Source: Pirellulales bacterium
GTDB taxonomy: Bacteria > Planctomycetota > Planctomycetia > Pirellulales > PALSA-1355
Assembly (NCBI GenBank): GCA_963733035.1
Contig: CAVTBU010000004.1
Span: 1 to 64,000, forward strand
DNA: 64,000 nt
Direction: 5' to 3'
Shown: positions 1 through 30,937 of the stretch, piece by piece
Position numbering within the stretch: position 1 is the first letter of the stretch
Layout of the letters: each line of letters starts with the position of its first letter
The notes under the pieces: model-generated
The model's database searches: none
Told to the model about the DNA's origin: nothing
What the model saw: the letters and a program-made list of their open reading frames with translations, nothing else
Program-made: the position numbers and the translations under genes

Positions 1-493
1 CTCTTGCCATGCTGGGGTGGCATCGACACGACCAGGCCTTCCTGCTTACCGGCCGCGGCCGCATCGATCAACTGCGCAATGGCTGTATCCAGATAGGCGA
101 GGTGCCGGGCCGGACGCCAAGCTCCCTCAGTCACCAGCTGGGCGAACATCCCCGGGCTGGTCGAGGCTAAGAGTCGCTCCAACTGGGCCAATTGCGGGCC
201 GCTGTTCAAGGCTGGCGATAAGCGCAACGACTTGTGATCGACGTTCTTCAAAGGTGACGTTGGAACGGGCATGGCTGCCGGACTCCATGGAAGCCGGGGC
301 GAGATCGAGACCAAGTACGCGCACGACGCGTGGCGATGCACTGATTTACAAGGGCCAGGAAGCGCGGATCGCCGTACTGATTGCGGATCCCTTCCTGTTC
401 GATCAGGGCCAGCTTCTGGAGTTCGTGCTGGCGACAGAGATCAAAATCCCGGACCGCGTCGGCCCGCCATTGTTTCTCAATGATCTTGAGATC
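1..493 (-). pseudogene. Truncated third copy of the TerS-like/TerL module: the TerL N-terminus runs off the window and the TerS-like gene is cut by a transposon
   Basis: Closely similar to 35536-36114 (GDLKIIEKQWRADAVRDFDLCRQHELQKL; SMPPQHGK Walker A), with a ~85-bp internal deletion. Homology stops where the transposon left end begins. Confidence 0.85.
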
Positions 494-533
494 TCCCCGG
501 AAAGAACCCTCTTCGAACCTGTACGCGCGAGAG

Positions 534-722
534 TGTTTTCGAGAAGTGCTTGTCCGGAACGGACTTGCTGAGTTCGAGTCTCTTTCGGTCTCCCTCAAAC
601 CGAAAGGAACCCTTTCGAACTCGGCGCTATCGGGTTAACAGCAATGTCAAGCTGGGCTATTAACTGCGCGACTCTTTTTCCGCACGCCCAAACTTTTGAC
701 GCTCCAGTTAACAGCCGCGCGC
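534..722. repeat. Structured non-coding segment, repeated at 19729-19920
   Basis: Stems GCTGAGTTCG/CGAACTCGGC (567-576/616-625) and GGCTATTAACTG/CAGTTAACAGCC (655-666/705-716) are kept in both copies. Confidence 0.75.
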
Positions 723-820
723 GACTTTGAGAGCTTCATCCTGCTGGTTATTTGCCGGTCTACCATGTACAAAAATGTATCCTTCCTCCAACCTGACAAC
801 GACTTGCGGATTCTACAGGG

Positions 821-1885
821 ATGTTGAAGCCTTACCAGGCCCTGATGGTTCTCCTGGCCCAAGCCACGGACCGCCAACTCGCCAAGTACGTCCAGTTTCT
901 CAAGGCCGAGAACGAAATCCTGCGGGCGCGATTGCCGCAGCGCATCGTGACCACGCCCGCAGAACGGCGCCGGCTGGTCAAATTGGGCAGGCCGCTCGGT
1001 CCGGCGATCAAAGGCCTGATCACGATCGTCAAGCCGGACACGTTTGCCCGCTGGCTGCGAAGTGCACGGAAGACCAAACCCGCCAGCAAACTGGGCCGGC
1101 CCAAGCTGCCGCTGCCGATTCGCGAGTTGGTCCTGCTCATCGCGCGCCAAACCGGTTGGGGCTACACCCGCGTGCTGGGGGAATTGCGGAAACTGACCTC
1201 CCGGAAAATCTCCCGGCAAACGGTGGTCAACATCATGCACGAGCACGGGCTCGATCCTGGACCCAAGCGCGGCGAATCAACCTGGGACGAGTTCATCCAT
1301 ATCCACGCTCAGACGCTCTGGCAGTGCGATTTCTTCAGCAAGCGCATCTGGACACCCAAGGGTTTGCGCGATTACTTCGTCCTGGTTTTCCTGCACGTCG
1401 CCAGCCGACGAGTTTTCATCTCGCCGGCCACCGCCCATCCCAATGCGGCCTGGGTGGTGAACCAGGCCGACCGCTTCTGCGAACACCTGCGATTGACCGG
1501 CGAGCGTGCCGACTTGCTGTTCCACGACAGTGACACAAAATTCACCCGCGTGTTCGATGAGGCGATTCAATCCTATGGCATCCGCGTCCGCCGGCTGCGG
1601 CCCATGTCGCCCAACTTGAATGCCTTTGTGGAGCGTTGGATCCAATCGATCAAGCACGAATGTTTGAATTATTTCATCGTGCTGGGCGAAGCTCACTTGA
1701 ATTACCTCGTGGAGCAGTACGTCAAGCACTACCACACCGAGCGGCCGCACCAGGGTGTCGGCATCGACAATGCATTGCTTTGTCCACGCAGTCCGCCTGA
1801 CGAGGGTGTGCCCCTGCTCGACGAGATCGACTGCCACGAGCGGCTCGGTGGGCTGTTGAAGTCGTACTCGCGCCGGGCAGCGTAG
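821..1885 (+). CDS. DDE transposase, integrase core (rve) domain, IS3/IS481-like superfamily
   Basis: WQCDFF, HDSDTKFT and PNLNAFVERWIQSIKHECL motifs (D-D-E), YHTERPHQG, and C-terminal RLGGLLKSYSRRAA. Confidence 0.9.
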   Translation: MLKPYQALMVLLAQATDRQLAKYVQFLKAENEILRARLPQRIVTTPAERRRLVKLGRPLGPAIKGLITIVKPDTFARWLRSARKTKPASKLGRPKLPLPIRELVLLIARQTGWGYTRVLGELRKLTSRKISRQTVVNIMHEHGLDPGPKRGESTWDEFIHIHAQTLWQCDFFSKRIWTPKGLRDYFVLVFLHVASRRVFISPATAHPNAAWVVNQADRFCEHLRLTGERADLLFHDSDTKFTRVFDEAIQSYGIRVRRLRPMSPNLNAFVERWIQSIKHECLNYFIVLGEAHLNYLVEQYVKHYHTERPHQGVGIDNALLCPRSPPDEGVPLLDEIDCHERLGGLLKSYSRRAA

Positions 1886-2503
1886 CGCGGCTACGTTCGC
1901 GATCGCGGGCCGGCGGCTCGCATTGCTGCTGCGCGGTTTGCTCGAAGTCTTCCGCTCCACTCCACATCGTGCCATTCCTCGGTGCCGCGACCGGCTTCCG
2001 TCGCCTACTGATTCGGAGATTCTGCGATCGCCCCCCTTGCAGATCCATCCGCAATCCGTCGATCCGATCGACGGCAATCATTTTTTTACGGGAAGGACAC
2101 CTGTACACTACCGAAAATACCTGTTTTCTCCGAAGCAAACGCGATTTTATCACGTCCAGAACGCATTTCAACGCGTTTCATATCGCATCGCGTTTTCGCG
2201 GGGAATTACGGTCATTTTGAAAAGCAATCCGGTAATTACCGGATCAAGATTTCGCGTTCGGGCTGATCGTCGCCAACTGGCAATAATGCCAGTTGAGACG
2301 GACGGACGCGACCCCTCAGAGTGCACGGGCTCTTCATTGCACCCAGCGATTGGGGTGATTACACTCCCTCGTATCGGACCCGCATGCCCGCGCCATCGAA
2401 CCAGAGAACAGCTAACCTCCTAGCCTCTCAACCTTAAGCGGCCCGCAACCTGGGCTGCTTTCTCGGTGTTCTGGTTCAAATCCCTACCTTCGGAGAGTAC
2501 GCA

Positions 2504-4312: not shown

Positions 4313-4445
4313 TAGCCCAAACTTTCTAACGCACGCCCGCGCTACGCGGCTCAGATTTCACGCGGTGCCGTTTGAACGCGACATGCGCAATACTGTGCGG
4401 GCCGCTTTCCTTGCATCGCGCTGGCGGGTGGCCTATTCTGCCCCC

Positions 4446-4940
4446 ATGCAAGCAAAAACCATCCTCGCCGCCGTCCTGCTGCTTTTGGCGACTGTTGCCA
4501 GCGCCGCCGACACCTTCACCGGCCGAGTGGTCAAAGTCATCGACGGAGACACGATAACCCTACTGGTCGACGGCAACCGGCAGGTCAAAATCCGCTTGAG
4601 CGAGATTGACGCCCCGGAACGTCGACAGGCGTTCGGACGCGTGAGCACTGAAGCACCGGCCAACATGGTGTTTGCCAAAGACGTTCGCATCGTCGACCAC
4701 GGCAAAGACAAGTACGGGCGGACGATTGGCGACGTTTTTATTGGCGACACTAACGTCAACTATGCGACGGTGGCTCTAGGGCTCGCTTGGCAATATCGAC
4801 GCTACTCCAAGTCAGAACGCCTTGCGGAACTTGAACGCGAAGCCCGCGATGCTAGGCGCGGCTTGTGGAGAGATAACGAGCCGGCGCCGCCTTGGGAGTA
4901 TCGCGCGATAGAACGCGAGAAACGAAGCCGGCGCGACTGA
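4446..4940 (+). CDS. Secreted thermonuclease (SNase family)
   Basis: Signal peptide; VIDGDT, IRLSEIDAPE, DKYGRTIG and ARRGLW motifs. Confidence 0.9.
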   Translation: MQAKTILAAVLLLLATVASAADTFTGRVVKVIDGDTITLLVDGNRQVKIRLSEIDAPERRQAFGRVSTEAPANMVFAKDVRIVDHGKDKYGRTIGDVFIGDTNVNYATVALGLAWQYRRYSKSERLAELEREARDARRGLWRDNEPAPPWEYRAIEREKRSRRD

Positions 4941-6514: not shown

Positions 6515-6900
6515 GCTCCCCGTAAAGAACCCTCTTCGAACCAATGCGCGCGAGCGCGATTTCGAGAACTGCATCGCCATCAAGGAATTGGCACTTGCCT
6601 GATCGGTGCCGACGATTCGGACGGGCCGCCATTGATTGATGATGTCGAGCAGCTTGCGTGCGAATCTCGACTCGGTGGGCTGCTCAAGACCTATCGTCGT
6701 GCCGCTTGAAGCCAGCCGAATCTCGGTTGATGTGATTCTGCCGCACGCTGGCGATGCGGCCGATCTCTCGAATGGGCAATTCTGAACCGAGATTTCGGAC
6801 GCACGCTGCCATGCTGCCGACGCAAAGGGCTAGGGATTCAAAGCACAACCACGCTCGCGAAGTGCCGAACAGGCTGTGGTATTCTTTTTGTACACAGCGG
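6515..6900 (+). mobile_element. Unit U1: non-autonomous derivative of the DDE element
   Basis: Left end GCTCCCCGTAAAGAACCCTCTTCGAAC, then the last ~40 transposase codons (HQGIG...RLGGLLKTYRRAA*), then right end TTTTGTACACAGCGG. Confidence 0.85.
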
Positions 6901-7109
6901 ATTGCACACATGTCGTGTCGAATTAGGCGGTACTCACTAACCTGAAACCCGTGATTTAATGGTTTGGTTGCCGTTCCCGGACGCATGGTCGCAGAGATTT
7001 GACCCTCCCCACCCGTTCTCGAACGACCGCAATAAGTTGGCGTGGCCACAGTTCCGACGTAGAATTGACCCCGGCCTAACGAGTCGGCAAATATATCGGA
7101 GAGCGTAGG

Positions 7110-7814
7110 ATGATCGGGCGATGCTTCGCTGTGGCAATGCTTGGGTTGACGATTGGCTTTCTGGCTGAACCGTGGCGCGCGATTGCACAAACGCCCGCGG
7201 AGGATGAAGCCGCCCGAGCGAAGATTCTCGAGGGCGCCTCGTGGCGGTGCGCAATGTTTGAAGTTAACGAATGGCTCATGAACCAGCGGGTCTATACCCG
7301 CGAGCAGGTGGATGAGATGCGCGAGGAGTTTCGAGAGCGCGTGGCGGAGATGGAAGCCGACGAATTAGCGTTAGTGCTAGCCGACCTGGAGACTAAGTTG
7401 CACATCATCGATAGCCAGGAGGCGCGCGAAGCTCGCGCATGGATGGCCGAGTATGTGTCGGTGATGTCTGATCGGAAACGGGCCGAAGTGCTGAGGGATC
7501 TGCCAAACTTGGCTCAGATGACTTCAGCTCAACTGCATCAAGAGGTCCTGCGGATCATTAAAAAGAGGGCGAACCTCGACCAGAGGCAGTTAGCCTTCAG
7601 GCGGAGTCAGGCGCAACAAGTTGCGTCCCAAGGACAGAGGAATCAATTTGCGCCGCAAATCCCTGCCCGTGCCCGTGCTGCGACAACCTTCTCGCCCTAC
7701 CGATCGCAATCGAACGTCAATGAGCGTTTGAACGCGGCGCCGGCGAATAGGCGTCCTTCGTTCTTCGTCGACGCATGGGGTAACGTAGGGCGGACTCTAC
7801 CGAGTAGCTGGTAG
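7110..7814 (+). CDS. Secreted alpha-helical hypothetical protein
   Basis: N-terminal signal-like sequence; 234 aa; the only gene between U1 and U2. Confidence 0.7.
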   Translation: MIGRCFAVAMLGLTIGFLAEPWRAIAQTPAEDEAARAKILEGASWRCAMFEVNEWLMNQRVYTREQVDEMREEFRERVAEMEADELALVLADLETKLHIIDSQEAREARAWMAEYVSVMSDRKRAEVLRDLPNLAQMTSAQLHQEVLRIIKKRANLDQRQLAFRRSQAQQVASQGQRNQFAPQIPARARAATTFSPYRSQSNVNERLNAAPANRRPSFFVDAWGNVGRTLPSSW

Positions 7815-7840: not shown

Positions 7841-8175
7841 CCTCCCAGTAAAGAACCCTTGTCGAACGAATTCGTGCGAGTGTACTTTTTCCGAAGGCGC
7901 ATGCTGCCGCCACTTGCTGTGTTGTGAACAGTTTTGAAGTGAGTCTCGCCTCGGCGGCCTGCTGAAGACCTATCGCCGAGCCGCGTGAAGTCGTGTCCCG
8001 GTGGCGCAGTTCCGTTCAGGCTGGCGATGCGCGCCCGTTTGTCCAATTGGCAATTCTGAAACAAAATCTCGGCAACACTCGGCCATTCTGCCAGCGTCAA
8101 TGGGTCGATAGTCGCGGCACAACTTCGCTCGCCGAGCACCAAAATCATTGTGGCATACATTTTGTACATGACAGG
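7841..8175 (+). mobile_element. Unit U2: non-autonomous derivative
   Basis: CCTCCCAGTAAAGAACCC ... RLGGLLKTYRRAA* ... TTTTGTACATGACAGG. Confidence 0.8.
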
Positions 8176-8436: not shown

Positions 8437-9471
8437 TCAGTATCGGAAGATCACGTCGACGTATAGTCGATTTCGCAGGATATCGGTTCGAGCAGTCATG
8501 GGGAACTCGTAGCCGGCACCGACCTCGCAATGTCGACTCGGCTTCCACCTCGCACCCACCACGCCCGTAACAACGTTGTTTCCGGCCGCACTGCCAGCAG
8601 GCAGGTTCATGATATCGAGTCCGGTGAGATCACCATTGAGATTCAACCCTGAGCTACGCATCCAGTGGTACCAGTTGATGCCCACCAACCCGTAGATGCC
8701 ATCGGTGACTTCGTAGTCCCACTGGTTCGACCAGTACCACATCTGGGTACCCCAGTTTGAGTTGGCGGGCAGGCGGAAGCCCGTGGCACTGAGCCAATGG
8801 CCGCGATCGAAAATCTGCTTGCCTGCCGTGAGAAATAGATGGAAATCACCATCGCCGAAATTCGAGAACACATTTCCCGAGCCTTTGATGAAGTACGTCA
8901 AACCGCCACTGACAAGCAGTTGTCGTTCCGCATCGCGGATGAAGTTGTATTTGAAACCAACGGGAGCTGCGAGAAAACCGTTCGGCGCGCCTCCACCGGC
9001 TTGATTTGCGTTCAAGAATCCAAGCCGCGGAACGATGATGCTGACCCGCTCGGTGACGCGTCCGCGAATCTGGCCCGCGTAGAGTTGAAAGTCGCCACCG
9101 CCAATGCTCGCGGGCAGGCTATTATCAATGAAGATCCCGCGCACTTCCGTCAAAGAACGTGGATCCTCAAAGTAGAACGGATTGGAGAGCGGGCTAATGA
9201 AGCTATCGAAGCAGTGGTCGCTGGGGAGTAGGCCGAAAATGCGTTGGCGACCGTTGAAACAATCACAACAGTCGTGGCATTCTTCATCGCAGCCGAACGA
9301 GGGACAGTTGAGCGGATCGCACAGCGTTGACGCCGAGCCGGCATTGTCAGTTGTCGCGGGTTCGCTTGATCCGGAGTCCGCGTAATAGGCGCTAAACTCG
9401 TTGGCGGCGATTGCCACGCTGCCGAACGAGAGAGAAACAGCTAGAGAGCCAAACACCCAGATCCATCTCAT
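8437..9471 (-). CDS. Putative outer-membrane beta-barrel protein
   Basis: Signal peptide, Cys-rich N-terminal linker, alternating hydrophobic strands, aromatic C-terminus VDVIFRY. Confidence 0.7.
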   Translation of the reverse strand: MRWIWVFGSLAVSLSFGSVAIAANEFSAYYADSGSSEPATTDNAGSASTLCDPLNCPSFGCDEECHDCCDCFNGRQRIFGLLPSDHCFDSFISPLSNPFYFEDPRSLTEVRGIFIDNSLPASIGGGDFQLYAGQIRGRVTERVSIIVPRLGFLNANQAGGGAPNGFLAAPVGFKYNFIRDAERQLLVSGGLTYFIKGSGNVFSNFGDGDFHLFLTAGKQIFDRGHWLSATGFRLPANSNWGTQMWYWSNQWDYEVTDGIYGLVGINWYHWMRSSGLNLNGDLTGLDIMNLPAGSAAGNNVVTGVVGARWKPSRHCEVGAGYEFPMTARTDILRNRLYVDVIFRY

Positions 9472-9734: not shown

Positions 9735-10121
9735 CCTCCCCGTAAAGACCGCTTTTTGAACCAATGCGCGTGTGAGCGATATCGAGAAGTGCATCGCCAT
9801 CAAGAAATTGGCACTTGCCTGATCGGTGCCGACGATTCTGACGGGCCGCCACTGATTGAAGGCATCGAGCAGCTTGAGTGTGAATCTTGGCTCGGCGGGC
9901 TGCTCAAGGCCTATGGCCACGCCGCCTGACGTCAGGCAAGTTTCGATCAGTTGTGATTCTGCCGCAAGCTGGCGATGCGGCCGATCTCTCGAATTGGCAA
10001 TTCTGAACCGGATTCTCGGCCGGCCGCCACCATGTTGCCGCGCCAATGGCTCGAGAAACGCGGCACAACCACGCTCTCCTGGAGCCGAACTGGCCGTGGC
10101 ATTCTTTTTTGTACGAGGCGG
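9735..10121 (+). mobile_element. Unit U3: non-autonomous derivative
   Basis: Same architecture and length as U1; ends CCTCCCCGTAAAGA and TTTTGTACGAGGCGG. Confidence 0.85.
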
Positions 10122-10236: not shown

Positions 10237-11013
10237 CTAGGCTGCACGCTTGTGTCGTCGCCACCAGCCTGCACCACCGATCGTCAGACCTAGCAGCGAC
10301 CAGACGATGACGCTGGCGGGTTCGGGGACCGAGGACGTAATCAAGGTCGCATTATCGACCGCCAAGCCATCGCTCATGGTAAGTTGGCTGAACCAAGCAT
10401 AATCGGGGCCGCCCGGCTGGTGGGCGGGGTCGAGGGCCAGACCCTGGTAAGTCTTGGTGTTGTCATAGGAGTAGATCTCCGCGCCATTGAGAGGTTCCAC
10501 AAAGACATGGCGGTTGAGGAAACTGCTTCCAGCCGTCCAAACGACCCCGATAGTGTACCATCCGGAGGTGTCGATCTTCGTACCACTGCCAAGGGGGACA
10601 TTATAGGAGCCACCGTTGCCCGTATAGTCCACGTACCACCCATCACTGGCCTTTCCGGCACCGAGGCCGGTATCGTCGAGCCAAGTTCCGTCCGAGGCTC
10701 TACGGATGCCGAAATCGAGGTTCCACTTGTCGCCGACGATCCCGGCAGCGGTGTCGATGTAGACGTCGATGCTCTGGGTGTAGGGCCCGGTCCAGACGGT
10801 GGACGGTGTCTGGTCAAAGTACGTGTAAGCATCCTGCTTGGCGATCGCGTAGTAGCTGCCGCCAGCAGGGGAAAGCGGAGAACTCACCCGATTAATCGTC
10901 CCGGCCCAGTCCCCCGTGCCTGATTCAAATCCCTGAACGGAGATCACCGCCTGCGCTGTGCTCGCCAGCGTCGTCACCACCAGCCCCATAAGTGCAATCG
11001 TAAAAAGTTTCAT
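10237..11013 (-). CDS. PEP-CTERM secreted protein
   Basis: Signal peptide; VPEPASVIVWSLLGL...WWRRHKR tail. Confidence 0.85.
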   Translation of the reverse strand: MKLFTIALMGLVVTTLASTAQAVISVQGFESGTGDWAGTINRVSSPLSPAGGSYYAIAKQDAYTYFDQTPSTVWTGPYTQSIDVYIDTAAGIVGDKWNLDFGIRRASDGTWLDDTGLGAGKASDGWYVDYTGNGGSYNVPLGSGTKIDTSGWYTIGVVWTAGSSFLNRHVFVEPLNGAEIYSYDNTKTYQGLALDPAHQPGGPDYAWFSQLTMSDGLAVDNATLITSSVPEPASVIVWSLLGLTIGGAGWWRRHKRAA

Positions 11014-12363: not shown

Positions 12364-12386
12364 GTGATCCTTGATGAACGCGAATC

Positions 12387-13342: not shown

Positions 13343-13395
13343 GTCGTTCTCCTTTTGCTTGTCGATGAGGCAATCCGACGGCCTGGCTTCGGCGA

Positions 13396-19294: not shown

Positions 19295-19309
19295 TAGCCG
19301 ACCCGTGGT

Positions 19310-19728: not shown

Positions 19729-20170
19729 TGTTTTCGAGAAGTGCTTGTCTGACAAAGACTTGCTGAGTTCGAGTCTCTTCCGGTCCCCCTAAAACCGAAT
19801 GAGACTGTTGCGAACTCGGCGCTCTCGGGTTAACAGCAATGTCAAGCTGGGCTATTAACTGCGCGACGCTTTTTCCGCACGCCCAAACTTTTGACGTCCA
19901 GTTAACAGCTGCGCGAGCGCGGAGACTCGACGGCTGGCTCGGCTCCGCGGGCTGCCAAATAAGTATCGTCGCGCGGCATGATGCCGTTCAATTCAGTTGA
20001 TGGAGTTCGGTCACGCGCTCGTGATGCACGCCGATCTTTCGAATTGGCAATTCCGAAACAGAATTTCGTCGGCCGCCGTCATGTTGCCGACACCAATCCC
20101 TCGAAAATCACGGCAGAACCACGCTCACCAAGCGCCGATCTCGCTGTGGCATTCGTTTTGTACACAGCGG
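19729..20170 (+). mobile_element. Unit U6: derivative keeping the structured leader, outer left end lost at the U5 junction
   Basis: 19729-19920 matches 534-722, followed by a degenerate RLGGL..YRRAA* and right end TTTTGTACACAGCGG. Confidence 0.75.
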
Positions 20171-20333
20171 TCTTTACACTCCAAGGATAAATTATTCGTA
20201 AGGAACTGCGCGACCGTTGACGCCAGCCAGATCGCCTGCCTACTGTCATATCGTTTGTCCTGGTAGGCGGAACTTGAACGCGTAGTAAAAAGCAGCTCAT
20301 GAAGTAAAACCACAATTCGGTTGAGGACATCCG

Positions 20334-21005
20334 ATGTCAAAGGCACCCGTGCTCGGTCGCTTGACCCAGGTGGCAATTCCCTTATGCGCGGTGTTGGCCG
20401 CCGTGCTCAACCCTTTCGTAGCGCTGGGAGAAACGATCACCTATAGCGTCGTCGACTATCCGGCAGCCGAAGCTGATGTGGTTAACCCCGGCAATCAGGA
20501 CCGAGTTTTGGGTACCATCACGGCATCGAGCGCCGACCCTCTCGGCTCATATACCGCCGGAGCAGCCTCTGGTTCGCCGGCGAACCCGATCAACGTCACG
20601 TTGTCGTACGCGATCACGCTCGAGTCGCTGGCGCCGGGAGGCGCGACAACGGCGTCGGTTAGCTACACCGGTTCCGGTCCACTGTCCTACTACCTGGGCT
20701 CGGGTACGATTACCTTTGATGCGACTTCGATTCAGCTCGGTGGGTACCTCTCGCTCGGCGCCAGCACAGTTGGCGCATCGGAAGAGATGTATTGGCGACC
20801 CGATCTTAACTCCTACTTTGGTCGCTACACGACGAACAGCGGACCGGTGATTTACTTCAGCCAGAACCCGGCCAACGATCTCGGTTCCTCCCCCTGGACC
20901 GTCGCCGTGGCGGTTCCCGAGCCGGGGACGCTCGCTCTGTTCGGTTCGGCCGCGGTGTTGCTGCCGCTGGCTCGCTTGCGGCGCGGGCGACGCATTCGCG
21001 GGTAA
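20334..21005 (+). CDS. PEP-CTERM secreted protein
   Basis: Signal peptide; VPEPGTLALFG...RLRRGRR; the only gene between U6 and U7. Confidence 0.85.
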   Translation: MSKAPVLGRLTQVAIPLCAVLAAVLNPFVALGETITYSVVDYPAAEADVVNPGNQDRVLGTITASSADPLGSYTAGAASGSPANPINVTLSYAITLESLAPGGATTASVSYTGSGPLSYYLGSGTITFDATSIQLGGYLSLGASTVGASEEMYWRPDLNSYFGRYTTNSGPVIYFSQNPANDLGSSPWTVAVAVPEPGTLALFGSAAVLLPLARLRRGRRIRG

Positions 21006-21042
21006 GCCGAGAATCGCCTCGCAGTGCTATAACGCTATAACG

Positions 21043-21370
21043 CCTCCCCGTAGGGAAGCCTTTTCGAACCGCTTCGCGTGAGCGCGCTTTCCGAAGGCGC
21101 ATATTGCAGCGACCGGCCGAGGTGCGAAAAGTTTCGGAGTCAGTCTCGCCTAGGCGGTTTGCTCAAGACCTAACGCCGTGCAGCCTGAAGTCAGCCAGGC
21201 TTCGGTCGGTTGGGATTCTGTCGCTCGCTGGCGGTGCGCGCCGGTGTCTCGAATTGGCAATTCTGAACCGAGATTTCGGACGCACGCTGCGACTGATGGC
21301 TCGAGAATCAGGGCACAACTACGCTCGACTAGAGGCAAACTGGCTGTGGCAACATATTTGTGCAGAGCGG
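21043..21370 (+). mobile_element. Unit U7: non-autonomous derivative
   Basis: CCTCCCCGTAGGGAAG...RLGGLLKT...TTTGTGCAGAGCGG; same short architecture as U2. Confidence 0.8.
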
Positions 21371-23532
21371 CCGATGCGCTTACGAAAGCGACGAACAGCG
21401 ACCGGAGCGACAACTGTCGCGGCCAAGCCGAGCAGGACAAACGTCGCCGGTTCAGGAACCGTGCGGACGCCCACGATTGTGCCGCTGAGGCTGACCGTTC
21501 CCACAAGACCATTGACGTCGAGCGGAAACGCGGCATTGATCGGCAGCGTCAAGGTTTCGGTGATGCCGGAGACTGAAAGATTGCCGATAGCCGAAGCATC
21601 GGGTGCCGATTGCCCTGCCAGAGGTGTCGTCCCCATCAGCGAAGCACCAAGCACGACCGCGTTATAGTCGAGGTCGCCTGCGGTGATTCCCAGCACATAT
21701 CCGGTGGCATCGAAATCACCGGTGCCACCGATCGTTGAAGGGCCACCGCTAACGTCAAACAGAATGTTGCGAAACGCGGCAGTACCACTGGCAAGACCGC
21801 CAAGCGTGAAGCCGTAGTCAGCGTCGGCCGACCCGTCACGGCCGCCTACAATCGGCTGCCAGGTGCCATTTACAAGAGCGTTCAGCGCTGCGCTTGTCAG
21901 CGAGATGGAGCCTCCCGACAGGTCACCGCTGATTGTTCCCTGGTAGTTTGTTTGATCGGCTCCAGGCCCCTGGGGCACGAGCGTCACGATGTCGTTGGGA
22001 AAGGTAGTCGTGACCTGAATGTAGGATGCTGACGAATCGACATTCCACGAGACCATGCCTGCCGTAGCTGAGGGGGCGTTTAGAGCGACGCCGAATAGCG
22101 CGACGAGAAGCAGAACTTTGCCATTCACAAGCGATGCCCTTATGGCCGTAACAGAGCGGCAGGGCAACAGGGGTCCAAAACTTAGAGCACGACGCAGGCG
22201 GGAGGTCGCTGTCATCATGACGCGCCTCCCGGACACAAGCTGGCGTCCTCCAAAAGTTGCATTGCGACAGCGCATGGACGTCTTGAGCCGTCCGAGCAAA
22301 CTCCAAGGGCTATGCGGTCGCCGCAGAGTGATTAGCAACAAGGCCGATAGCCCAAGTACGATCGATGCGGGCTCGGGCACGACGGTGACTTGCAACGTCG
22401 CAGTGACCGGGAAGTGGTCGGAGGGATAAAGCCCGTTATACGACGTGTGTACGATCTGGGCGGCTGTGGCCGTGAATGTCGACGCGTCGTAAAAAATGTG
22501 ATCGATTGAAGCACCATACTGGTCTCCGGTAAAATGGTGAGACGTCGACTCGTCGACGCCGATCGTGGGATATACGTTCCGATAGGCATCGGTGAGCTTA
22601 AAGCCGCTGGCGATGCTGCCATCGAGCGTCTGCAGGCTAGAACTTTCGAGTTCCGCGTTGAAGTCGCCGATCACCAACACCGGCAGCCCGCCCGCGAGCT
22701 GGCTGATCTGGTCGCGCATGAGCGTGGCCGACTCGTCCCGGGCCAGCGAATCGAGCGACCAGTGCGTGTCGACGGTAAAATACGTCTGGTGGCTTTGATT
22801 GTCGTTCAGCTTGATCCAGGACACCATGCGCGGATTGCTGGTGTCGGTCCCGGTTCCGTAGAACGTCGTCCCAGGCACGGTCGGAGTATCGCTCAGCCAG
22901 AAGTCTCCATGCCCTAGGTCGGTGAAACGAGAGGTCAAATAGAAAATGCCATTCGTCTCGCCGCTGTTACTGCCGTTGCCGCCGCGCCCTTGCCCGTAAT
23001 ACGTGTATCCGGGGAGAGCGGCCTTCAAGTCATTGACCTGGTTGGGCAGCCCTTCCTGCTCTCCCAGGATGTCCGGCGCGTAGCTGGTAATCTTGTCGAT
23101 GGCTTTGTCGCGGCGATCGCCGGTAAAGATTACTGATTTGTCCGTGACCCAACTGTTGGGGGACAATTGATTCGTGGCGTCGTCTTCCTTGATGTTGAAT
23201 GTCATGACGTTCAGATCCGCGGTCCCGGCCTGCGCCAGTGTGCCGGCCAACAAGACCGTGGCCGGCCCCGCCCATGAGAGGACGAGATTTGCAAGGCGGG
23301 AGGAATGATCACGGTGGGGCCATCGATTCCTGACCGGGGCCCCGCCCCCGCCGGCGCTTGAACGATCCGAACGCAGCCACGCTCGCCGCCACCGAAATAG
23401 GAAGGCCCCAGGCGCTGGCTGCGGCACCTCCAACCGGTCGAATGAAGCACGACCCGTTACGTTGCGATCTTGGGCCAATGGCAGTCTCAGAGATTCCCTG
23501 AGCCGAAAAATGGCCGCGCCGGCCAGCAACAC
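21319..23532 (-). CDS. Fused ORF: endonuclease/exonuclease/phosphatase (EEP) domain + PEP-CTERM, then a second PEP-CTERM protein (possible own GTG start at 22128)
   Basis: VMTFNI, GEQE, GDFN, IDHIF and SDHFPV motifs; two VPEP-TM-basic signals; the stop lies inside U7. Confidence 0.75.
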   Translation of the reverse strand: MLLAGAAIFRLRESLRLPLAQDRNVTGRASFDRLEVPQPAPGAFLFRWRRAWLRSDRSSAGGGGAPVRNRWPHRDHSSRLANLVLSWAGPATVLLAGTLAQAGTADLNVMTFNIKEDDATNQLSPNSWVTDKSVIFTGDRRDKAIDKITSYAPDILGEQEGLPNQVNDLKAALPGYTYYGQGRGGNGSNSGETNGIFYLTSRFTDLGHGDFWLSDTPTVPGTTFYGTGTDTSNPRMVSWIKLNDNQSHQTYFTVDTHWSLDSLARDESATLMRDQISQLAGGLPVLVIGDFNAELESSSLQTLDGSIASGFKLTDAYRNVYPTIGVDESTSHHFTGDQYGASIDHIFYDASTFTATAAQIVHTSYNGLYPSDHFPVTATLQVTVVPEPASIVLGLSALLLITLRRPHSPWSLLGRLKTSMRCRNATFGGRQLVSGRRVMMTATSRLRRALSFGPLLPCRSVTAIRASLVNGKVLLLVALFGVALNAPSATAGMVSWNVDSSASYIQVTTTFPNDIVTLVPQGPGADQTNYQGTISGDLSGGSISLTSAALNALVNGTWQPIVGGRDGSADADYGFTLGGLASGTAAFRNILFDVSGGPSTIGGTGDFDATGYVLGITAGDLDYNAVVLGASLMGTTPLAGQSAPDASAIGNLSVSGITETLTLPINAAFPLDVNGLVGTVSLSGTIVGVRTVPEPATFVLLGLAATVVAPVAVRRFRKRIGRSAQICCHSQFASSRA

Positions 23533-24490
23533 CAGCGCGGGCGCCTTCGCCGCAATGCGACCAGCAGCAGAGTCAGCCCGCCAGCGCCGGCCAGCACGGC
23601 CGTGCCGGGCTCAGGGACACTTGCCACGCGGAACCCGATTTCGTCGTACCCCTGCGTCGGGTATAAGGTGTAGGTGTAGTACCCGCGGGCCAGGGTGTCG
23701 TAGGTGCCGTTCCACGCGCCACCACGCGCAGCTAAGCCGTCTTCGTTCCATTGAAAGACGTCGCCTCCCATGTCGTACGCGCCGTAGGGGCTGGCTGAGC
23801 CCGTGTACGCTCCCACATCGGTTAAATAGCTCTGATTGGGGTCATAGGGCATCGAGGGGCCCGTAAGGGAGAAGCCCGTTGAATTGCTGAAGAAGTTCGC
23901 AGTGTTGGGCGTGCTGCCTGGAGGCGCGGAGGTCGGCGCTGTGTTGCTGGAAAATGGGTATTGGTAATACGAGCTCGTGGCCGGGTCGTAGTACGCCGCC
24001 TTGTCCCATTCATGTTGGCTGGGGATGTAGACGGTGGCGAACGGACTGCGTTGGACTTCGAGCAGTGCAAGGTCGGTGTTCGCTCCGTTGAGGGCGTACG
24101 CACCCGTTTCCGTAGTGCCCGGGCCTTCGGCTCCGGTTGGCTGGCCGTTTTGCAGCCAGTTGCAGAAGCGGGCCGCGTCGACCCAACTCACGTAGGTGAT
24201 CGGCAGATTCGCCGAATTGCCGATCACGCTGTAGGTGTAGCTGCCCGAGGAGCCGCTGCGCAATACCGGCAATGTTGAGGTCCGTGCCCATCGGCGGGTA
24301 GTACAGCCCGTACGTATCGGTGGCCGCCACGGCGTTCAGGAACTCAGTGTACTGGGCGACCGTGACATCGTACTTGTCGATGCTGTAATTGTAGGGGACC
24401 GAGCCGTAGCCGGCGTTGCCCACCGGCACCCAATCGATCGTGACGGCCAAAGCGGGGGAAGCGAACGCGCACAGGGCCGTGCAGCCCAGG
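23487..24490 (-). CDS. FGE-sulfatase/PEP-CTERM unit 2, frameshifted near 24260, translated as a continuation of the upstream ORF
   Basis: VTIDWVPVGNAG in one frame and EWDKAAY...GFRVASVPEP in another; a GC dinucleotide is missing relative to paralogues. Confidence 0.75.
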
Positions 24491-25593
24491 AACGCCAACG
24501 CGCGGCGCCTTCGCCGCAGAACAACCAGCAGCAAGGCCAGCCCGCCAGCGCCGGCCAGCACTGCCGTGCCTGGCTCAGGGACGCTGGCCACGCGGAACCC
24601 AATGCCGAAGCTCTCGTCCCCCGGGTTGTAGGAATCCCGCCATGAGGAGGCCGAGGTGTTCGAGCCGTAGCTATACGAACCACCCCGCATGACCTTATTA
24701 TCCCCGTTTCTGGTTTCGGTCCACTGCCACACGTCGCCTCCCATGTCGAACGCGCCATAGGGGCTGGCCGAGCCTGTGTACGCCCCCACATTGGTCAGGT
24801 AAGGTGGGCCCGCTACGGCGTAGTCGCTGCCATAAAAATTGCCTGTGTCGGGCGTGCTGCCTGGTGGCGCCGAAGTCGGGAGCGTGTTGCTCGAAAACGG
24901 ATATTGATAGTAAGCTCCCGCGCCGCTGTTGAGCGTCGGGTCGTAGTAGGCTGCCTTGTACCACTCGTTCTCGTTGGGAAGGAAGATCGTGGCGTCGGCG
25001 TTGCGTGTGATGGTCCGCAGCAAGATATCGTTAGTGATACCGTTGAGCGTGTACGCGCCGGTTTCGGTCGTGCCCGGGCCTTCCGCTCCTGTTGGCTGGC
25101 CGTTTTGCAGCCAGTTGGCAAACCGAACCGCGTTGCCCCAACTCGCGTACGTAACCGGAAAATTGGCCGAGTTGCCGATCACGCTGTAGGTGTAGCTTCC
25201 CGAGGAGCCGCTTTGGGCGATGCCCGCAATGTCTGCGTCCGTGGCCATATTGCCGTAGTAGAGCCCGTACGGGTCGGCCTTCGCGACGGAGTTGAGGAAC
25301 TCGGTGTACTGACCGACCGTGACGTCGTACTTATCGATGTTGTAGTCGTAGGCCACGGCGCCGTAGCGGGAGGACGTGTTCGGATCGGCCGCATTGCCGG
25401 CATTGCCCACGGGTGCCCAATCGATCGTGACAGCGGAGGCAGGTAACGCGAAAACGCACGCAAACGTGTAGGCCAGCCAGACCAAAGCGCGGCGCCTTTG
25501 CCGCAGAGCAATCGGTGAGGGCTGCAGAGCCGGCTTCCGTGGTGGGATGGTCATGCCTTTTAGCAAGGCGGAATGAGCAAGGACGAGGTCCAT
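24490..25593 (-). CDS. FGE-sulfatase/PEP-CTERM unit 1 (no stop; runs into the signal peptide of unit 2)
   Basis: Start overlaps the GH99 stop (TAATG); complete FGE motifs; VPEP-TM-RRRRR. Confidence 0.8.
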
Positions 25594-26849
25594 TAGAAGC
25601 CTTCCTTTCTTTGTCGAGAAACATGCCGATGCCCAACCGCCACTTGTCTCAGCAATACGGCCAGCACAATCAAACAGCTACCTGCCAATAACAGTTGACT
25701 GCTTGTCGGCTCCGGAACGGTGGCCGTGCGCAGCTCGTTGAGGTAAAGATCGCCGTATCCCGGGTACGAGTATCCCTGCGTCAACGTTCCCGAGGCGTCG
25801 TCGGCGCTGGTCGGAGCGGCCAGGTTCGTGGGCTCGATTTGCGTGTCCTCGTGCCACTCGTTGAACGAGTTAACCATCAGGATATTTGCAGCCGCCGGAT
25901 CGAGGTTGGGCAGCGCGGCGCGATTGAGCTCGTCGGCAAACAACGATCCCTCGGCCGAGCCAGGGACATCGGTCTCGTAGCGCGGCGCGGCCGCGTGGCC
26001 CGAGCGGACCGCCGCGTCGTTGAAACCCGGCGAGACCGTGGGAATGAACCCGATATTGTCCGCGTGCGCCATTTGAGCGGCCGCCTGGTATTGACTGGCC
26101 AGCTCGGTCACGGCGGCCGTCGTCGAACCAAGACCTCCTAGCGCGCTTCCGTAGACGTCGAAGTCGGTGATCGCGTCCCACAATCCCGCCCGCTGGGCGT
26201 CGTTCTGGCCGGGAAACACGTCGTCGCCGATCAAGTAGGGATCGACGCCGAACTGCTGCTCCATCGCTTGGCGCAGGTCCGCGACCGCCTGCTGTCCGCC
26301 CGGACCGTTGAAGTAGGCCCGCGTGAGATACATGAACACGACCGGGCGCCCGTCGATTTGCAGGTAATTGGGATTGTTGAAATAGTCCTGCGCCAGGTAT
26401 TGAAAGTCGGGGATCAGGTTCGTGTAGTTGGGGCGGCTGAAGCTTCCCAGCCGTCCGGTGGACTCGTAGTGGATCGCGTATTTCAGTTCGCCGGCGCGCG
26501 GATCGGTCAACACGTAGTCCTGCAACGTCGTATCTTCGGCCGAACCTGACCCCCACCAGCTCGTGGCCCAAAAGCTGATGTTCGCCTGGTGGCTGGCGTC
26601 GATCTGCGACTCGATGGCCGCGCTGCTGCGGCTGCTGTAGTAGCCCTGCGCGGGCGACTGCTGCGGCGCCAGGTTCTCGCGCAGCGTCTGCGTCCAGCTA
26701 TGGCCGCCTGGGTACGGTCCGTACCACGGATAGTAATAGGCTCCTACGAGGGGAGCCGCCTGCGCGCGGATGCCCGACAAAGCCAGGCAGGCAATAAAGC
26801 CCAGCGCGAGGAGTCGTGCGGCAAGCGGACGAAACGCGATCTTCAACAT
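25593..26849 (-). CDS. Glycoside hydrolase family 99-like protein with PEP-CTERM
   Basis: AYYYPWY, SWWG, IDGRPVVF, VSPGFND and NSFNEWHEDTQIEP motifs; VPEP tail. Confidence 0.8.
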   Translation of the reverse strand: MLKIAFRPLAARLLALGFIACLALSGIRAQAAPLVGAYYYPWYGPYPGGHSWTQTLRENLAPQQSPAQGYYSSRSSAAIESQIDASHQANISFWATSWWGSGSAEDTTLQDYVLTDPRAGELKYAIHYESTGRLGSFSRPNYTNLIPDFQYLAQDYFNNPNYLQIDGRPVVFMYLTRAYFNGPGGQQAVADLRQAMEQQFGVDPYLIGDDVFPGQNDAQRAGLWDAITDFDVYGSALGGLGSTTAAVTELASQYQAAAQMAHADNIGFIPTVSPGFNDAAVRSGHAAAPRYETDVPGSAEGSLFADELNRAALPNLDPAAANILMVNSFNEWHEDTQIEPTNLAAPTSADDASGTLTQGYSYPGYGDLYLNELRTATVPEPTSSQLLLAGSCLIVLAVLLRQVAVGHRHVSRQRKEGF

Positions 26850-27262
26850 GGCTAGCAACTACGCGAGGATTTCCCCGTCCTTTCTTTTTTGAGAGACGAG
26901 ACGTTCGCCAGGACCGAGAAGGAAATGCTTCTGTGCCTGTCGACGACCGATCTGCGATTGAATGAAAGGGTAATGTTCTTGTGTGCAGGGCCGTCAGCCG
27001 GGCTCGTCCGCAAATTCAACCGGCTACCATTCAATGCGTGAAAGCCTTCCCCCTTGCACCGACTTTTTTGAGAATTGCCGCCAGGAACGAACTGGACGGG
27101 CGTCCTGAGGTGCTGCCCGGCTCCGCGGCACACTCGCCGGGCTCAGAGGTTTGGAAGGCGCGAAACGTCGCTTTGCGCGGGACTTCCAAGAAAGACGAAA
27201 CCGGCGGAGTCCTGGTTTACAATGGTGCCTTAAGGTCAGTCTGTTCCGGCGGTCCATTGAAG

Positions 27263-27819
27263 ATGGATAACGTTACTCAAATCCTATGCGCGATCCAACA
27301 GGGCGACCCTCGCGCCGCGGACCGGCTTCTTCCGCTGGTGTACGCCGAGCTGCGGCGGCTGGCCGCACAGCGTCTGGCCCAGGAGCAGCCGGGACAGACG
27401 CTTCAAGCAACGGCGCTGGTTCACGAAGTTTACCTGCGACTGGTCGACGTGGAGCTCATCCAGAAATGGGATGGGCGAGGTCACTTTTTCGCGGCCGCGG
27501 CGGAAGCGATGCGGCGAATCCTGATTGAGCGAGCGCGCAAGCAGCGCACGCTCAAGCGCGGGGGGCGGGAAACCGGCTCGATTTCGAGGAGCTTTCGCTG
27601 GCCGTCGATGGCCCGTCCTTCGAGTTAATGGCAATCGACGAGGCTTTGAGCGAGCTCGAGCGCAACGAGCCGCAGGCTGCACTGCTCGTCAAATTGAGGT
27701 TTTTTGCCGGATTGTCGCACCAGGAGGCGGCCGAGGCCATCGGGGTCACCCGCCGGGCCGCGGACCGGCTTTGGACCCTGGCTAAGGCCTGGTTGTATCG
27801 ACGTTTGGACGGCGCTTAG
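27263..27819 (+). CDS. Planctomycete-type ECF sigma factor (TIGR02999-like), frameshifted at the G-run 27560-27565
   Basis: LLPLVYAELRRLA, TLQATALVHEVYLRL, HFFAAAAEAMRRIL; second frame LVKLRFFAGL...AKAWL. Confidence 0.85.
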
Positions 27820-27904
27820 GCAGCATCGATCCGACAAATAGCGTGCAAACTCGCAGCGGCTGACGCATTAGAGGGTAGAGCCCCATCGCCCCCAAAGAAA
27901 CGCC

Positions 27905-30250
27905 ATGGCTGACTGGAACCCGAAAGCGAACGAAATCTTCCTGCGGGCGGTGGAAATCGACTCGCCCGACGACCGCGGGCGCTACCTCGACGAAGTGTGC
28001 CAGGCGGACGTAGCACTCCGCGCCGAGGTGGAATCCTTGTTGGCGGCCTCGGAGCAAGCCGGCAGCTTCCTGGAGTCACCACCGGCAGGCTTGACGGCCG
28101 CCGCGATCGGCGAGTCTCTCCCAGAACACGTCGGTTCGATCGTCGGCCCCTACAAGCTGCTGGAGCAGATTGGCGAAGGCGGCATGGGCGTGGTGTTCAT
28201 GGCCGAACAGACCCAGCCGGTACGTCGCAAGGTGGCCCTGAAGCTGATCAAGCCGGGCATGGATACGCGCAACGTGATCGCACGGTTCGAGGCCGAGCGG
28301 CAGGCGCTTGCCGTGATGGATCATCCGGGCATTGCCCGCGTCCTTGACGCGGGCGCGACGCCCGCGGGTCATCCCTACTTTGCGATGGAACTGGTTCGCG
28401 GCGTGCCGATCACCGCCTATTGCGACGAGCAGAATCTGCCGATTCGCGAGCGGCTGGAGCTTTTCGCGTCTGTCTGTCAGGCGGTCCAGCATGCGCACGG
28501 CAAGGGGATCATTCACCGGGACATCAAGCCCAGCAACGTGCTTGTCACCCGCCAGGACGGCAGGGCGGTCGTCAAGGTGATCGACTTTGGCGTGGCCAAG
28601 GCGATGGGCCAACAGTTGACGGAGAATACGCTCTTCACGAACTTTGCCCAAATGATCGGCACGCCTCTCTACATGAGTCCCGAGCAGGCGGAAGCCAGTG
28701 GCGTGGACATCGATACCCGAAGCGACATCTATTCCTTGGGAGTCCTGCTCTACGAGCTGCTCACCGGCACGACGCCTGTGAGCACCGAACAACTGCAGAA
28801 GGCTGGATTCGACGAGATCCGCCGCATCATTCGCGAGCAGGAGCCTCTCACGCCAAGTGCGCGCATCAGCAGCAGCCAAAGTTTGCCGGCGATCGCCGCA
28901 CACCGGCACATCGAGCCTGTGCGCCTGACGCGACTGATGCGCGGAGAGCTGGACTGGATCGTGATGAAGGCGCTGGAGAAGGATCGCAATCGGCGTTACG
29001 AGACGGCCAACGCCTTTGCAGCGGATATCCTGCACCACTTGCACGACGAACCGGTCCAGGCGTGCCCACCCTCGGCGAGTTACCGGTTCCGCAAGCTTGC
29101 CCGCCGCAACCGCGCTGCCTTGGCGACCATCAGCGTGGTAGCCGCGGCGCTGCTTGCCGGAACGGTGCTCAGCACCTGGCAGGCAGTCCGTGCCAGACGC
29201 GCCGAGCGCTTGGCCGATGCTCGCCTAGTCGCGGAAAAAAAGGCGCGTGAGGCGGAGACGGCCCTGCGCAAGCAGGCCGAAGCCCAACAAGCCGCCGCGG
29301 AGGTTTTCGTAAAAGACGTTTACCAAGCGGCCGAAAATATGTCCAAGACGGATGACTGGCGGGAACTATTGTTCGAGCGGGCTCTCGCGCTTACCGAGGA
29401 GCTGGCCCGCGGATTCCCCTCTCAGCCAGACCACTTGGAGCGTGCGGGCCACATTCACAGGTTCCTAGGCTGGATTGCCGAAGCCGACGGCCGATTCGAC
29501 GAAGCTCGCTCGCACTTAGAAAAGGGCGCCGCTGCGTTCAAACAACTCGCCGCAGGTCACTTTCCAAAGGGGGACCGGTACTACGGCGGTTTACATGGCG
29601 ATGCACTCGCGAGCTTGGCCATCGTGCTGCGGAAGGCGGGAAAGCCCAGCGAGGCCGAGGAGACGGTTCGCGAGGCCATCCGCATTTGCCGCGCTGCGTC
29701 TGGGGACGAGAGCCAACCCTTGGCCTTTGCGCTGTCTGCGCTCGCACAGTTGCTCGCCGAGCGCAAAGAATACCTGGAAGCCGAGGCGAGCTACCGCGAG
29801 GTCATTCCCATTTGGGAGAAACTGGTCACCCGGTCGCCAACCAACGAGTTCTATCGCTGGCATCTCGCGGATAGTCACAGAAGCCTGGGCAATGTGCTGC
29901 GTGCCGTTGAGCGCTACGACGAGGCCGAGGCGAGCTGCCGCAAGGCCATCGCCGTCTGGGAGAAACTGGTCGCCGAGTCGCCGACCAATCAGGGCTATCG
30001 CTGGCACCTCGCCGGAACTCACGACAACCTGACCTACGTGCTGCGTGCCGTCGAGCGCCACGAAGAAGCCGAGGCGAGCTGCCAGAAGGCCATCGCCATT
30101 TGGGAGCAGCTGGTCGCCGAGTCGCCAACGAACCAGGACTTTCGGCATCATCTCGGCTGGAGCCGCAAATCGTCGCGAAATAGCGATTCAGGCAATCTCA
30201 AATCATGTAGCGACTTGCTTAAGCAGCCCCCTCAAACGAGTCCGCGCTGA
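27905..30250 (+). CDS. Ser/Thr protein kinase with TM and TPR-like repeats
   Basis: [22 protein letters not shown] and [10 protein letters not shown] motifs; the C-terminus looks abruptly truncated. Confidence 0.92.
29780..30160 (+). repeat. 144-bp (48-aa) tandem repeat, ~2.7 copies
   Basis: GCCGAGGCGAGCT at 29780, 29924 and 30068. Confidence 0.85.
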
Positions 30251-30415
30251 GATGAGTAGTCTTGGCGGGCACAGATCGCAGGAGGTCTTTCGATACGATG
30301 CGGCAAGAAGTACGGAATGGGTTAGGATTATCCCGAAGTTGCGAGACGCTGAGGTGCTAACCCCCCCTGGGCAGGTGAGTGAAACTGGATTGGACGGTGG
30401 CGACGTCCTTATTGC

Positions 30416-30897
30416 GCTCCCAGTACAGAACCCTCTTCGAACCAATGCGCACGAGTGCTATTTTGAGAAGTGGTGTTGGGCAATCCGTGGTCGCCAGGTT
30501 CGTCTGCATATCACCGGTCCGAACGACGGTGTGGGATGGCGAGTTCGTCGACTACTATCACGACTGTCGACCGCATCAAGGCATTGGCAATCGGCTGATT
30601 GGTGCGGACGATTCCGACGCGCCGCCAGAGTTTGAGTGCGTTGAGCAGCTTGAGTGCGAGTCTCGGCTCGGCGGGCTGCTCAAGACATATCGTCGCGCCG
30701 CCTGACGACGGTCAAGTTTCGATCAGCTACGATTCTGTCGCACGCTGGCGATGCGGCCGATCTCTCGAATTTGCGATTCTGAACCGAGATTTCGGACGCA
30801 CGCTGCCATGCTGCCGACGCAAAGGGCTAGGGATTCAAAGCACAACCGCGCTCGCGAAGTGCCGAACAGGCTGTGGTATTCTTTTTGTACACAGCGG
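30416..30897 (+). mobile_element. Unit U8: non-autonomous derivative with 5-bp target duplication
   Basis: ATTGC at 30411-30415 and 30898-30902; ends GCTCCCAGTACAGAA and TTTTGTACACAGCGG. Confidence 0.85.
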
Positions 30898-30937
30898 ATT
30901 GCACACATGTCGTGTCGAATTAGGCGGTACTCACTAA

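Follow-up and report, generated by a model that had tools for sequence, protein, structure and literature searches.

How do nine copies of one repeat come to lie on the same strand among blocks of secreted-protein genes, and do the repeats gather those genes? The question is raised by the start of contig C4 of a Pirellulales draft genome (GCA_963733035.1, here G000; 6.65 Mb in 10 contigs, 60% G+C, 92% complete), where one intact transposon, U0, is accompanied by eight shorter derivatives, U1–U8. A sequence-only reading of this DNA had taken the array for an integron-like platform on which a DDE transposase accumulates or swaps surface-protein genes, and had named an orientation-biased insertion hotspot as the alternative. 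We analysed the first 64 kb of C4 (485,618 nt), hereafter the window; the window begins where the contig begins, and more of the array may therefore lie to the left of it. Our results favour, with a probability of roughly 0.55, a decayed cluster of one insertion sequence (IS) family that spread head-to-tail in a variable region beside a tRNA-Asn(GTT) gene, and not a gene-collecting machine.

Nine co-oriented units of one IS family

We detected units by repeat finding, by BLAST of the nine units against the genome and with nhmmer profiles of both ends, and mapped their structures onto a 1652-nt element of genome G007, itself frameshifted (Table 1). Repeat families D1–D5, D8, D10 and D12 span the nine units, and in BLAST the nine intervals match one another, always on the plus strand. 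The end profiles placed six left and eight right ends on C4, all plus and all within 491–30897, with none past 30897 in the remaining 455 kb of the contig. All three approaches uphold the nine units and their single strand as first described, as well as the absence of units from 31–64 kb. If the units are independent, the two-sided chance of nine out of nine on one strand is 1/256. Three of the seven intervals between units contain a single gene (7110–7814, 8437–9471 on the minus strand, and 20334–21005), again as described. Genome-wide BLASTN bore out the clustering, with only about six pieces outside C4, and the local co-orientation; a role of the units in gathering PEP-CTERM genes, to which we return below, was not borne out. 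At 59.1% G+C (genome: 60.3%), the array ranks at the 12th percentile of 30-kb windows.

U0 is 1.6 kb long, with about 330 nt ahead of its open reading frame (ORF), about 210 nt behind it and repeated subterminal motifs. Its transposase scores 46.5 bits with Pfam rve_3 and a sub-threshold 30.4 bits with rve. The best NCBIfam model is IS481 (NF033577), at 94.1 bits under a cut-off of 224, and IS3 follows with 71.5 bits (cut-off 160); PF13610 (DDE_Tnp_IS240, IS6-type) did not match the U0 transposase and matched, weakly, only the unrelated IS3 element of the array. Residues D170, D236/D238 and E271 are conserved in an alignment of 16 sequences (U0, 14 homologues and the U4 fragment). Judged by these profile and alignment comparisons, the family is rve-type and closest to IS481/IS3. 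It is also large and unnamed, with 2527 homologous proteins at E ≤ 1e-10. Over its first 230 nt U0 shares 90% identity with the G007 element, which belongs to another genus; the transposase DNA of the two is about 65% identical and their right ends are unrelated. Within this left end (493–720) a motif of about 22 nt occurs in two direct copies and one inverted copy. U0 may thus be a mosaic, or its left end may be under strong constraint.

The derivatives measure 328–746 nt. U1 and U3 are 82.7% identical over 381 nt and U2 and U7 69.8% identical over 338 nt; a third copy of the first type (A) lies at C2:4775–5040 and of the second (B) at C2:3750–3981, and the copies of each type are 70–83% alike and have one deletion junction in common (A: U1, U3, C2:4775; B: U2, U7, C2:3750). 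Both ends are retained in U1, U2, U3, U7 and U8. In being short, lacking a transposase and keeping both parental ends, with one internal deletion common to the copies of type A and one to those of type B, these units are of the kind of miniature inverted-repeat transposable elements (MITEs). U4, U5 and the C5 copy begin, by eye, with short left-tip-like motifs, so they may be extreme internal deletions rather than 5′ truncations. U6, which abuts the right tip of U5, is 90.5% identical to positions 41–229 of U0, and an 8-nt inverted copy of the U5 right tip stands ahead of U5. Within the right end, the GAATTGGCAATTC palindrome and the last 25 nt are conserved.

That the derivatives descend from U0, as first assumed, did not hold up: the transposase remnant of U4 is only 45% identical to the U0 transposase, and the U0 right end differs from those of the derivatives. 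We found no autonomous copy of the derivative lineage in this genome. The array thus comprises U0, apparently intact but divergent, and eight derivatives that are relics of another lineage within the family and cannot move on their own. The array has decayed, since it contains an SNase pseudogene and a phage gene cut at U0 and its derivatives have no autonomous copy. The pseudogene is 85.6% identical to 4503–4919, in inverted orientation, by self-comparison and three-frame translation, and a 125-nt SNase piece adjoins U4. The cut phage gene matches a paralogue in two segments (1–388 with 35536–35924 at 95.9% identity, 391–496 with 36012–36117 at 86.8%); the paralogous ORF at 35662–36471 (−) encodes an HTH domain in Pfam, and a search of the U0 right flank for the continuation of this paralogue gave no match.

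Table 1. Positions of the units and of neighbouring features. Coordinates are those of the window on contig C4 unless another contig or locus is named.
Feature	Position	Strand	Basis or remark
Phage-like gene remnant, truncated at U0 left end	1–496	−	Paralogue at 35536–36117
U0	493–2096	+	Only full-length superfamily element in genome; imperfect terminal inverted repeats
U0 transposase ORF, 354 aa, rve-type DDE	821–1885	+	Pfam
U1, MITE-like, type A	6515–6900	+	Reference 4–78 plus 1329–1646
U2, MITE-like, type B	7841–8175	+	End profiles, self-comparison
U3, MITE-like, type A	9735–10121	+	Reference 4–78 plus 1329–1646
U4, longest derivative-lineage remnant	15160–15905	+	Last 185 aa of transposase and right end
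U5, right-hand 390 nt of element	19310–19728	+	Reference mapping
U6, chimera	19729–20170	+	U0-type left part (from position 41/48) and derivative-type right end
U7, MITE-like, type B	21043–21370	+	End profiles; between two convergent PEP-CTERM genes
U8, MITE-like, third type	30416–30897	+	Right half resembles U1
Unit piece	C2:3781–3979	+	BLAST/nhmmer
Unit piece	C2:4775–5040	+	BLAST/nhmmer
Unit piece	C5:2534172–2534457	+	BLAST/nhmmer
Unit piece	C6:846579–846647	−	BLAST/nhmmer
Unit piece	C9:20777–20976	−	BLAST/nhmmer
Unit piece	C9:31284–31394	+	BLAST/nhmmer
Right-tip-to-internal junctions	U5/U6, L013:16932, L014:6701 (66 nt between), L019:8292, L023:12638, L024:6057, L027:227
Duplicated module: PEP-CTERM gene (20334–21005) and left 150 nt of U7	20171–21190	+	Copy at C2:2900–3884
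IS3-family element, unrelated	11339–12733	−	IS3 NCBIfam model, 355.7 bits
SNase pseudogene	13390–13880	−	Paralogue of 4365–4940; one frameshift, one in-frame stop
IS5-family element, unrelated, within duplicated flank of U8	30938–31848	−	NCBIfam, 115.5 bits, cut-off 110
Prophage-like/integrative-element genes, between array and tRNA	34313–46034	−	Pfam and ORFs
tRNA-Asn(GTT)	47155–47229	−	ARAGORN; entire variable region on tRNA 3′ side
glgE (+), mak (+), pyruvate carboxylase (−), conserved core	47541–54679		Pfam

The array lies in a tRNA-Asn variable region

The main new fact of the analysis is the location of the array on the flank of a tRNA-Asn gene called by ARAGORN. The same tRNA-Asn adjoins units in loci L023, L015 and L017 (genomes G020, G024 and G007), and the core beyond it is shared, with glgE, mak and pyruvate carboxylase in L023, GlgE in L015 and L017, and glgE orthologues in the same-genus genomes G001–G003. 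In all, pieces of the family lie at tRNA-Asn/glgE in five genomes of three genera (this one, G020, G024, G007 and the same-genus G003), and in five of five there are units 3′ of the tRNA that have the opposite strand to it. Beyond mak, G020 has two additional right-end pieces. In L023 (G020:C242, 2751–7621) a 4.8-kb phage-like insert with capsid and Clp protease genes stands between 49-nt direct repeats of the tRNA-Asn end, which shows that integration at this tRNA is active in that relative.

The stretch between array and tRNA has the traits of a tRNA-linked island: the tRNA forms one boundary and a large serine recombinase (44469–46034) lies beside it, in a prophage-like element at 37–46 kb that also has a D5 primase and a ParB-methylase. 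A second, broken phage gene set occupies 34–37 kb and includes two Phage_integrase fragments at 36261–36912, 5 kb past the array. A terminase-like ORF in 34313–46034 was called by eye and has no Pfam hit. A PEP-CTERM gene and the IS5 element separate these phage genes from the array. Self-comparison of the window found no second copy of the tRNA 3′ end at a far boundary, which may precede the contig start. The IS3 element of the array is one of six near-identical genome copies (99.2–99.7% identity). Other unit loci are IS sinks as well: of a 1.4-kb IS with five copies, one lies 213 nt from the C5 unit and one at C2:1–1400, and the C6 unit has an IS3 fragment 3 kb away.

Secreted-protein genes appear to be residents

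PF07589 has 96 matches genome-wide at E ≤ 0.1, of which ten fall in C4:1–31000, eight of them above cut-off. The ten PEP-CTERM genes counted by the sequence-only reading are therefore present, and their enrichment in the array is real. The protein encoded at 10237–11013 has, by eye, a PEP-CTERM-like tail. Of six PEP-CTERM clusters in this genome (own profile, 92 matches), one coincides with units. On the same tRNA flank in G002 and G001, where units are absent, there are PEP-CTERM genes nonetheless, with three motifs in two ORFs in G002 and two motifs in G001. A gene of the G002 flank is FGE-sulfatase-like and 50–58% identical to the array copies by tblastx, and an FGE-sulfatase/PEP-CTERM gene is present at the G020 tRNA-Asn locus too. 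Near the units of relatives, the neighbouring genes are for the most part metabolic, regulatory or of phage type; they encode GlgE, DUF1501, an FGase-GCS2-RimK operon, a GDPD enzyme, DUF2252, ECF-sigma/kinase pairs and phage proteins. Only nine PEP-CTERM motifs occur in about 300 kb of those loci, and 12 of 15 cargo proteins lack a G000 homologue at E ≤ 1e-20.

Because only one cluster in six has units, relatives carry the genes without them, cargo elsewhere is mostly not of the surface type and the array is decaying, the units are not the gatherers of the PEP-CTERM genes. Pfam scans of 29 ORFs in 1–32 kb and 23 ORFs in 32–64 kb found no IntI-like recombinase adjoining the array; their only matches of this kind were the two Phage_integrase fragments within the prophage remnants. 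We met no attC-type sites bounding single-gene cassettes; the units are IS ends with C-terminal remnants of the transposase. Genes of the array lie on both strands and in multi-gene blocks, with at least one pseudogene. An integron-like surface-gene platform is thus not supported: the tRNA flank, the resident PEP-CTERM genes, the missing IntI and the unrelated cargo of relatives all speak against it. A better fit is the hotspot with orientation-biased insertion that the sequence-only reading had itself raised as a caveat. On our reading, the genes for secreted and PEP-CTERM proteins are mostly residents or local paralogues of the flank rather than captured cassettes.

Units mark recombination breakpoints

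Two younger duplications end at or inside units, and units are therefore recombination breakpoints. In one, C2:2900–3884 aligns over 1021 nt with C4:20170–21190 (93.8% identity); on C4 the left boundary falls at the U6 right tip to within one base and the other boundary inside U7, and the C2 copy has no right end upstream. In the other, a 250-nt segment made up of the right half of U1 and 83 nt of its flank (6734–6983) recurs at U8 at 98–100% identity (6734–6940 against 30731–30937, 98%; 6937–6983 against 31849–31895, 100%), where it is split by the IS5 element and resumes at 31849. Both duplications are recent. The first description had given the units a part in recombination: this stands for their use as breakpoints and falls for the accumulation of surface genes on a platform.

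Soil-metagenome reads bear on the continuity of the array. Words matching the window occur in three low-depth runs of one study (5–27% of sampled words) and in no listed RNA run; the three were those which we examined as short Logan contigs placed on 12000–31999. Two of these contigs, probably from the source sample, match the junctions at 20849–21201 and 30109–30438 without difference. Five weak joints, one of them from 19874 to 21226, have sides of 20–40 nt, and other copies or organisms are a possible source of these.

Co-orientation and the mode of spread

Among 17 fetched loci (3–20 kb each) from seven related genomes, each local cluster is same-strand throughout. The only exceptions, two weak minus matches in L028, come from doublets of left ends that form palindromes, of which they are the inverted halves. 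Co-orientation is thus not peculiar to this array; it is a trait of the family. Apart from the loci of G009 and G003, right ends outnumber left ends at the relatives' loci by 27 to 11. In seven junctions a right tip is joined to an internal position of a second same-strand copy (Table 1), and in one, L019:15042, a right-tip remnant is joined to a left end. In another family, G056:C54 contains a full copy and, 190 nt further on, a 5′-truncated copy on the same strand.

Replication direction, an external target motif and right-end RNA explain nothing of this pattern, and we infer from it an orientation-preserving local process; head-to-tail insertion, IS26-like joining and local duplication would all be of this kind, and the fossils do not separate them. 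No conserved external motif was seen in the unit flanks. Rfam gave no structured-RNA match at E ≤ 1 in 1–32 kb, and RNAalifold on 29 right ends returned four pairs without covariation, so we rejected the idea that the conserved right end of 190 nt forms a structured RNA. PEP-CTERM 3′ ends were rejected as an insertion target as well, the two cases in G000 (U7 and C2) being copies of one duplication.

In the account that we prefer, new copies would land head-to-tail beside or inside resident copies, for which the tandem-dimer and end-targeting behaviour of copy-out-paste-in IS elements provides a model. Deletions and local duplications afterwards would leave direct repeats with genes between them, and the present units would mark old insertions that were followed by adjacent deletions, recombination between units and small duplications.

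Several observations weigh against this account. Its head-to-tail step is drawn from fossil junctions only, and cargo turnover is not observable without a close strain in the comparison. The clusters at tRNA-Asn in five genomes may be one inherited feature, and so not five independent cases. In an order-wide survey that found the transposase in 63 of 151 genomes, 8 of 11 neighbouring pairs (distinct copies, ≤60 kb) are co-oriented, which alone is not significant; the three opposed pairs are copies of different subfamilies. The boundary of the C2 module exactly at the U6 tip, with no unit at the other copy, fits mobilisation of a unit with its cargo equally well. Target-site duplications (TSDs) of the IS481 family range from 4 to 15 bp. 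By eye, we saw none at U0, U1, U3, U7 or U8, and only 3-nt matches at U2 and the G007 reference element, so simple insertion is shown for no unit. A published analysis (PMC11708052) explains missing TSDs by IS copies recombining with one another, by deletion of adjacent DNA and by insertion linked to rearrangement, and includes a case from the IS481 family. An empty site for a G024 MITE was sought in G020 and G006 and not found.

Alternative explanations

The known mechanism nearest to the platform idea is an accretion of the IS26 kind, in which the transposase or homologous recombination fuses circles of a unit with adjoining DNA, or unit-bearing replicons, to a resident unit, and so produces an array of direct repeats separated by foreign cargo. 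The units are all directly repeated, internal units have no convincing TSDs, adjacent genes are cut at unit ends, the module 20171–21190, duplicated on C2, has a unit tip exactly at one boundary while its other boundary falls within a unit, and U1 and U8 have their right half and flank in common at 98–100%, as such joining would predict. Yet the units are short, 70–88% alike and of several deletion types, not identical full-length copies; the sole transposase comes from the other lineage, has a different right end and is not of the IS6 family; PEP-CTERM/FGE-sulfatase genes reside at this locus in unit-free relatives; and the G+C content of the array is unremarkable. We consider this origin unlikely. 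Similarly improbable, in our judgement, is local segmental duplication, by which an ancestral module of unit and gene was copied through unequal crossing-over or sister-chromatid events and then diverged, its copies inheriting their orientation. The four FGE-sulfatase copies, three SNase pieces and tandem pair at 23512–25511 within the array would follow from it, as would the three copies each of MITE types A and B and the order type B, minus-strand gene, type A found at both U2–U3 and C2:3750–5040, and PMC11708052 reports, for Pseudomonas fluorescens, a newly arisen duplication that has a copy of the IS481 family at its centre. It sits poorly with blocks between units that are mostly unrelated to one another, with several paralogues (I1–I22) that are inverted rather than tandem and with unit structures that alternate, and it leaves the right-tip-to-internal fusions in five other genomes unexplained.

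Insertion in one orientation relative to the replication fork, and hence uniform within a replichore, is a candidate that we rejected as highly improbable. Within G000 all four informative loci fit (plus-strand units on C4, C2 and C5 with negative GC skew, the minus-strand unit on C6 with positive skew), two clusters on contig C15 of G024 are opposite in both strand and skew, and 13 of the 17 fetched loci have negative skew when read in the direction of the element, two of the 13 lying within 0.001 of zero. With 57–242 kb of flank, though, 12 clusters in relatives split into six negative and six positive, and at the orthologous tRNA-Asn locus the sign of the skew varies between genomes. A bolder proposal is that an IS481-like family has a built-in, orientation-preserving local spread, head-to-tail or by IS26-like circle joining, and so builds direct-repeat arrays able to duplicate and move the genes in between; this strikes us as doubtful, if worth keeping in view.

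Neighbouring genes and other repeats

The array has no syntenic counterpart in the three same-genus genomes, where the candidate G002:C261, with three short matches, was rejected. The gene at 8437–9471 (−) is the only array gene with 73%-identical same-genus orthologues, found in a different context. It encodes a secreted 344-aa protein without a Pfam family and with an aromatic C-terminal residue, probably the "beta-barrel" of the first description; a paralogue (76%) lies at C6:881955–882796, and in all three same-genus genomes the orthologues adjoin a block that is located on contig C8 in G000. ECF-sigma/kinase pairs stand beside units in G000, G024 and G007. We dismissed them as a linked feature: the intergenic DNA is non-homologous and the equal 166-nt spacing coincidental.

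Two tandem arrangements involve PEP-CTERM genes. At 23512–25511 an FGE-sulfatase/PEP-CTERM gene is duplicated at 69% identity, the frame of the upstream copy continuing past its PEP-CTERM motif, and at 60547–61838, distant from units, small PEP-CTERM genes are 84% identical over 606 nt. A conserved stretch of 70–150 nt, present three times in this genome (16110–16270, C2:2767–2856 and C5:2839708–2839777), lies 0.8–1.2 kb upstream of same-strand PEP-CTERM motifs. Several loci in G002 and G003 match it at 76–91%, and small PEP-CTERM genes may have in it a common leader or regulatory element.

Two further forms of the left end occur in relatives. In L028 (G009:C34, 7845–13741) and L029 (G003:C5, 9789–11324) the left-end motif alone recurs every 1–2 kb as palindromic doublets, an inverted copy followed after a few bases by a direct copy, which resemble REPIN-type repeats derived from one IS end. 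In G024, a 2.5-kb IS91-family element with a tyrosine recombinase and a Y2/Zn transposase lies directly after position ~172 of the unit-family left end in three places (L013:6955–9153, L015:12120–14318 and L016:15560–18100) at 99% identity. One of these copies is within a full-length copy of the family, and the other two seem to carry the 172-nt left end along.

Comparison with known systems

An IS graveyard in a tRNA-linked variable region is an ordinary finding, and it cautions that co-oriented repeats around secreted-protein genes need not mean a cassette system, as here the genes are residents of the locus and the repeats later arrivals. The interest for transposon biology lies in the co-oriented clusters, the right-tip-to-internal fusions and the tip-bounded duplications, which together hint that an element of the IS481/IS3 type spreads locally head-to-tail or in the manner of IS26. 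Were this true, a second, unrelated transposase lineage would assemble gene arrays, here on planctomycete surface-protein genes. A literature search found no paper in which "Planctomycetes", "insertion sequence" and "PEP-CTERM" occur together.

To integrons the likeness is outward only, in same-orientation short repeats between blocks of one to several genes; unlike them, the array has no IntI, its repeats are transposon ends with transposase remnants, and its genes lie on both strands in multi-gene blocks. IS26/IS6 arrays come closer, with direct-oriented copies interspersed with gene blocks (described in PMC4196232 and PMC7885326), genes cut at IS ends and modules bounded by IS tips. They differ in that the transposase here is rve/rve_3 of the IS481/IS3 kind, the copies are diverged and part of the cargo is resident. 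With the IS481 family U0 shares a single ORF of about 350 aa, a DD(35)E triad, terminal inverted repeats and its best NCBIfam model; it scores far under the family cut-off (94.1 against 224 bits) and no conserved external target motif was seen in the flanks. According to PMC11708052, copies of that family in P. fluorescens SBW25 are able to insert site-specifically, with an oriented repeat as target, and to occupy the junctions of duplications with no TSD. The nearest match is with IS-derived MITEs and relics in tRNA-linked islands, which likewise comprise short derivatives that are non-autonomous, retain both ends and differ in their internal deletions, among IS elements, prophage remnants, pseudogenes and accessory secreted-protein genes beside a tRNA and a recombinase. 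What sets the present array apart from these is that here and in seven relatives every local cluster is co-oriented and right ends outnumber left ends.

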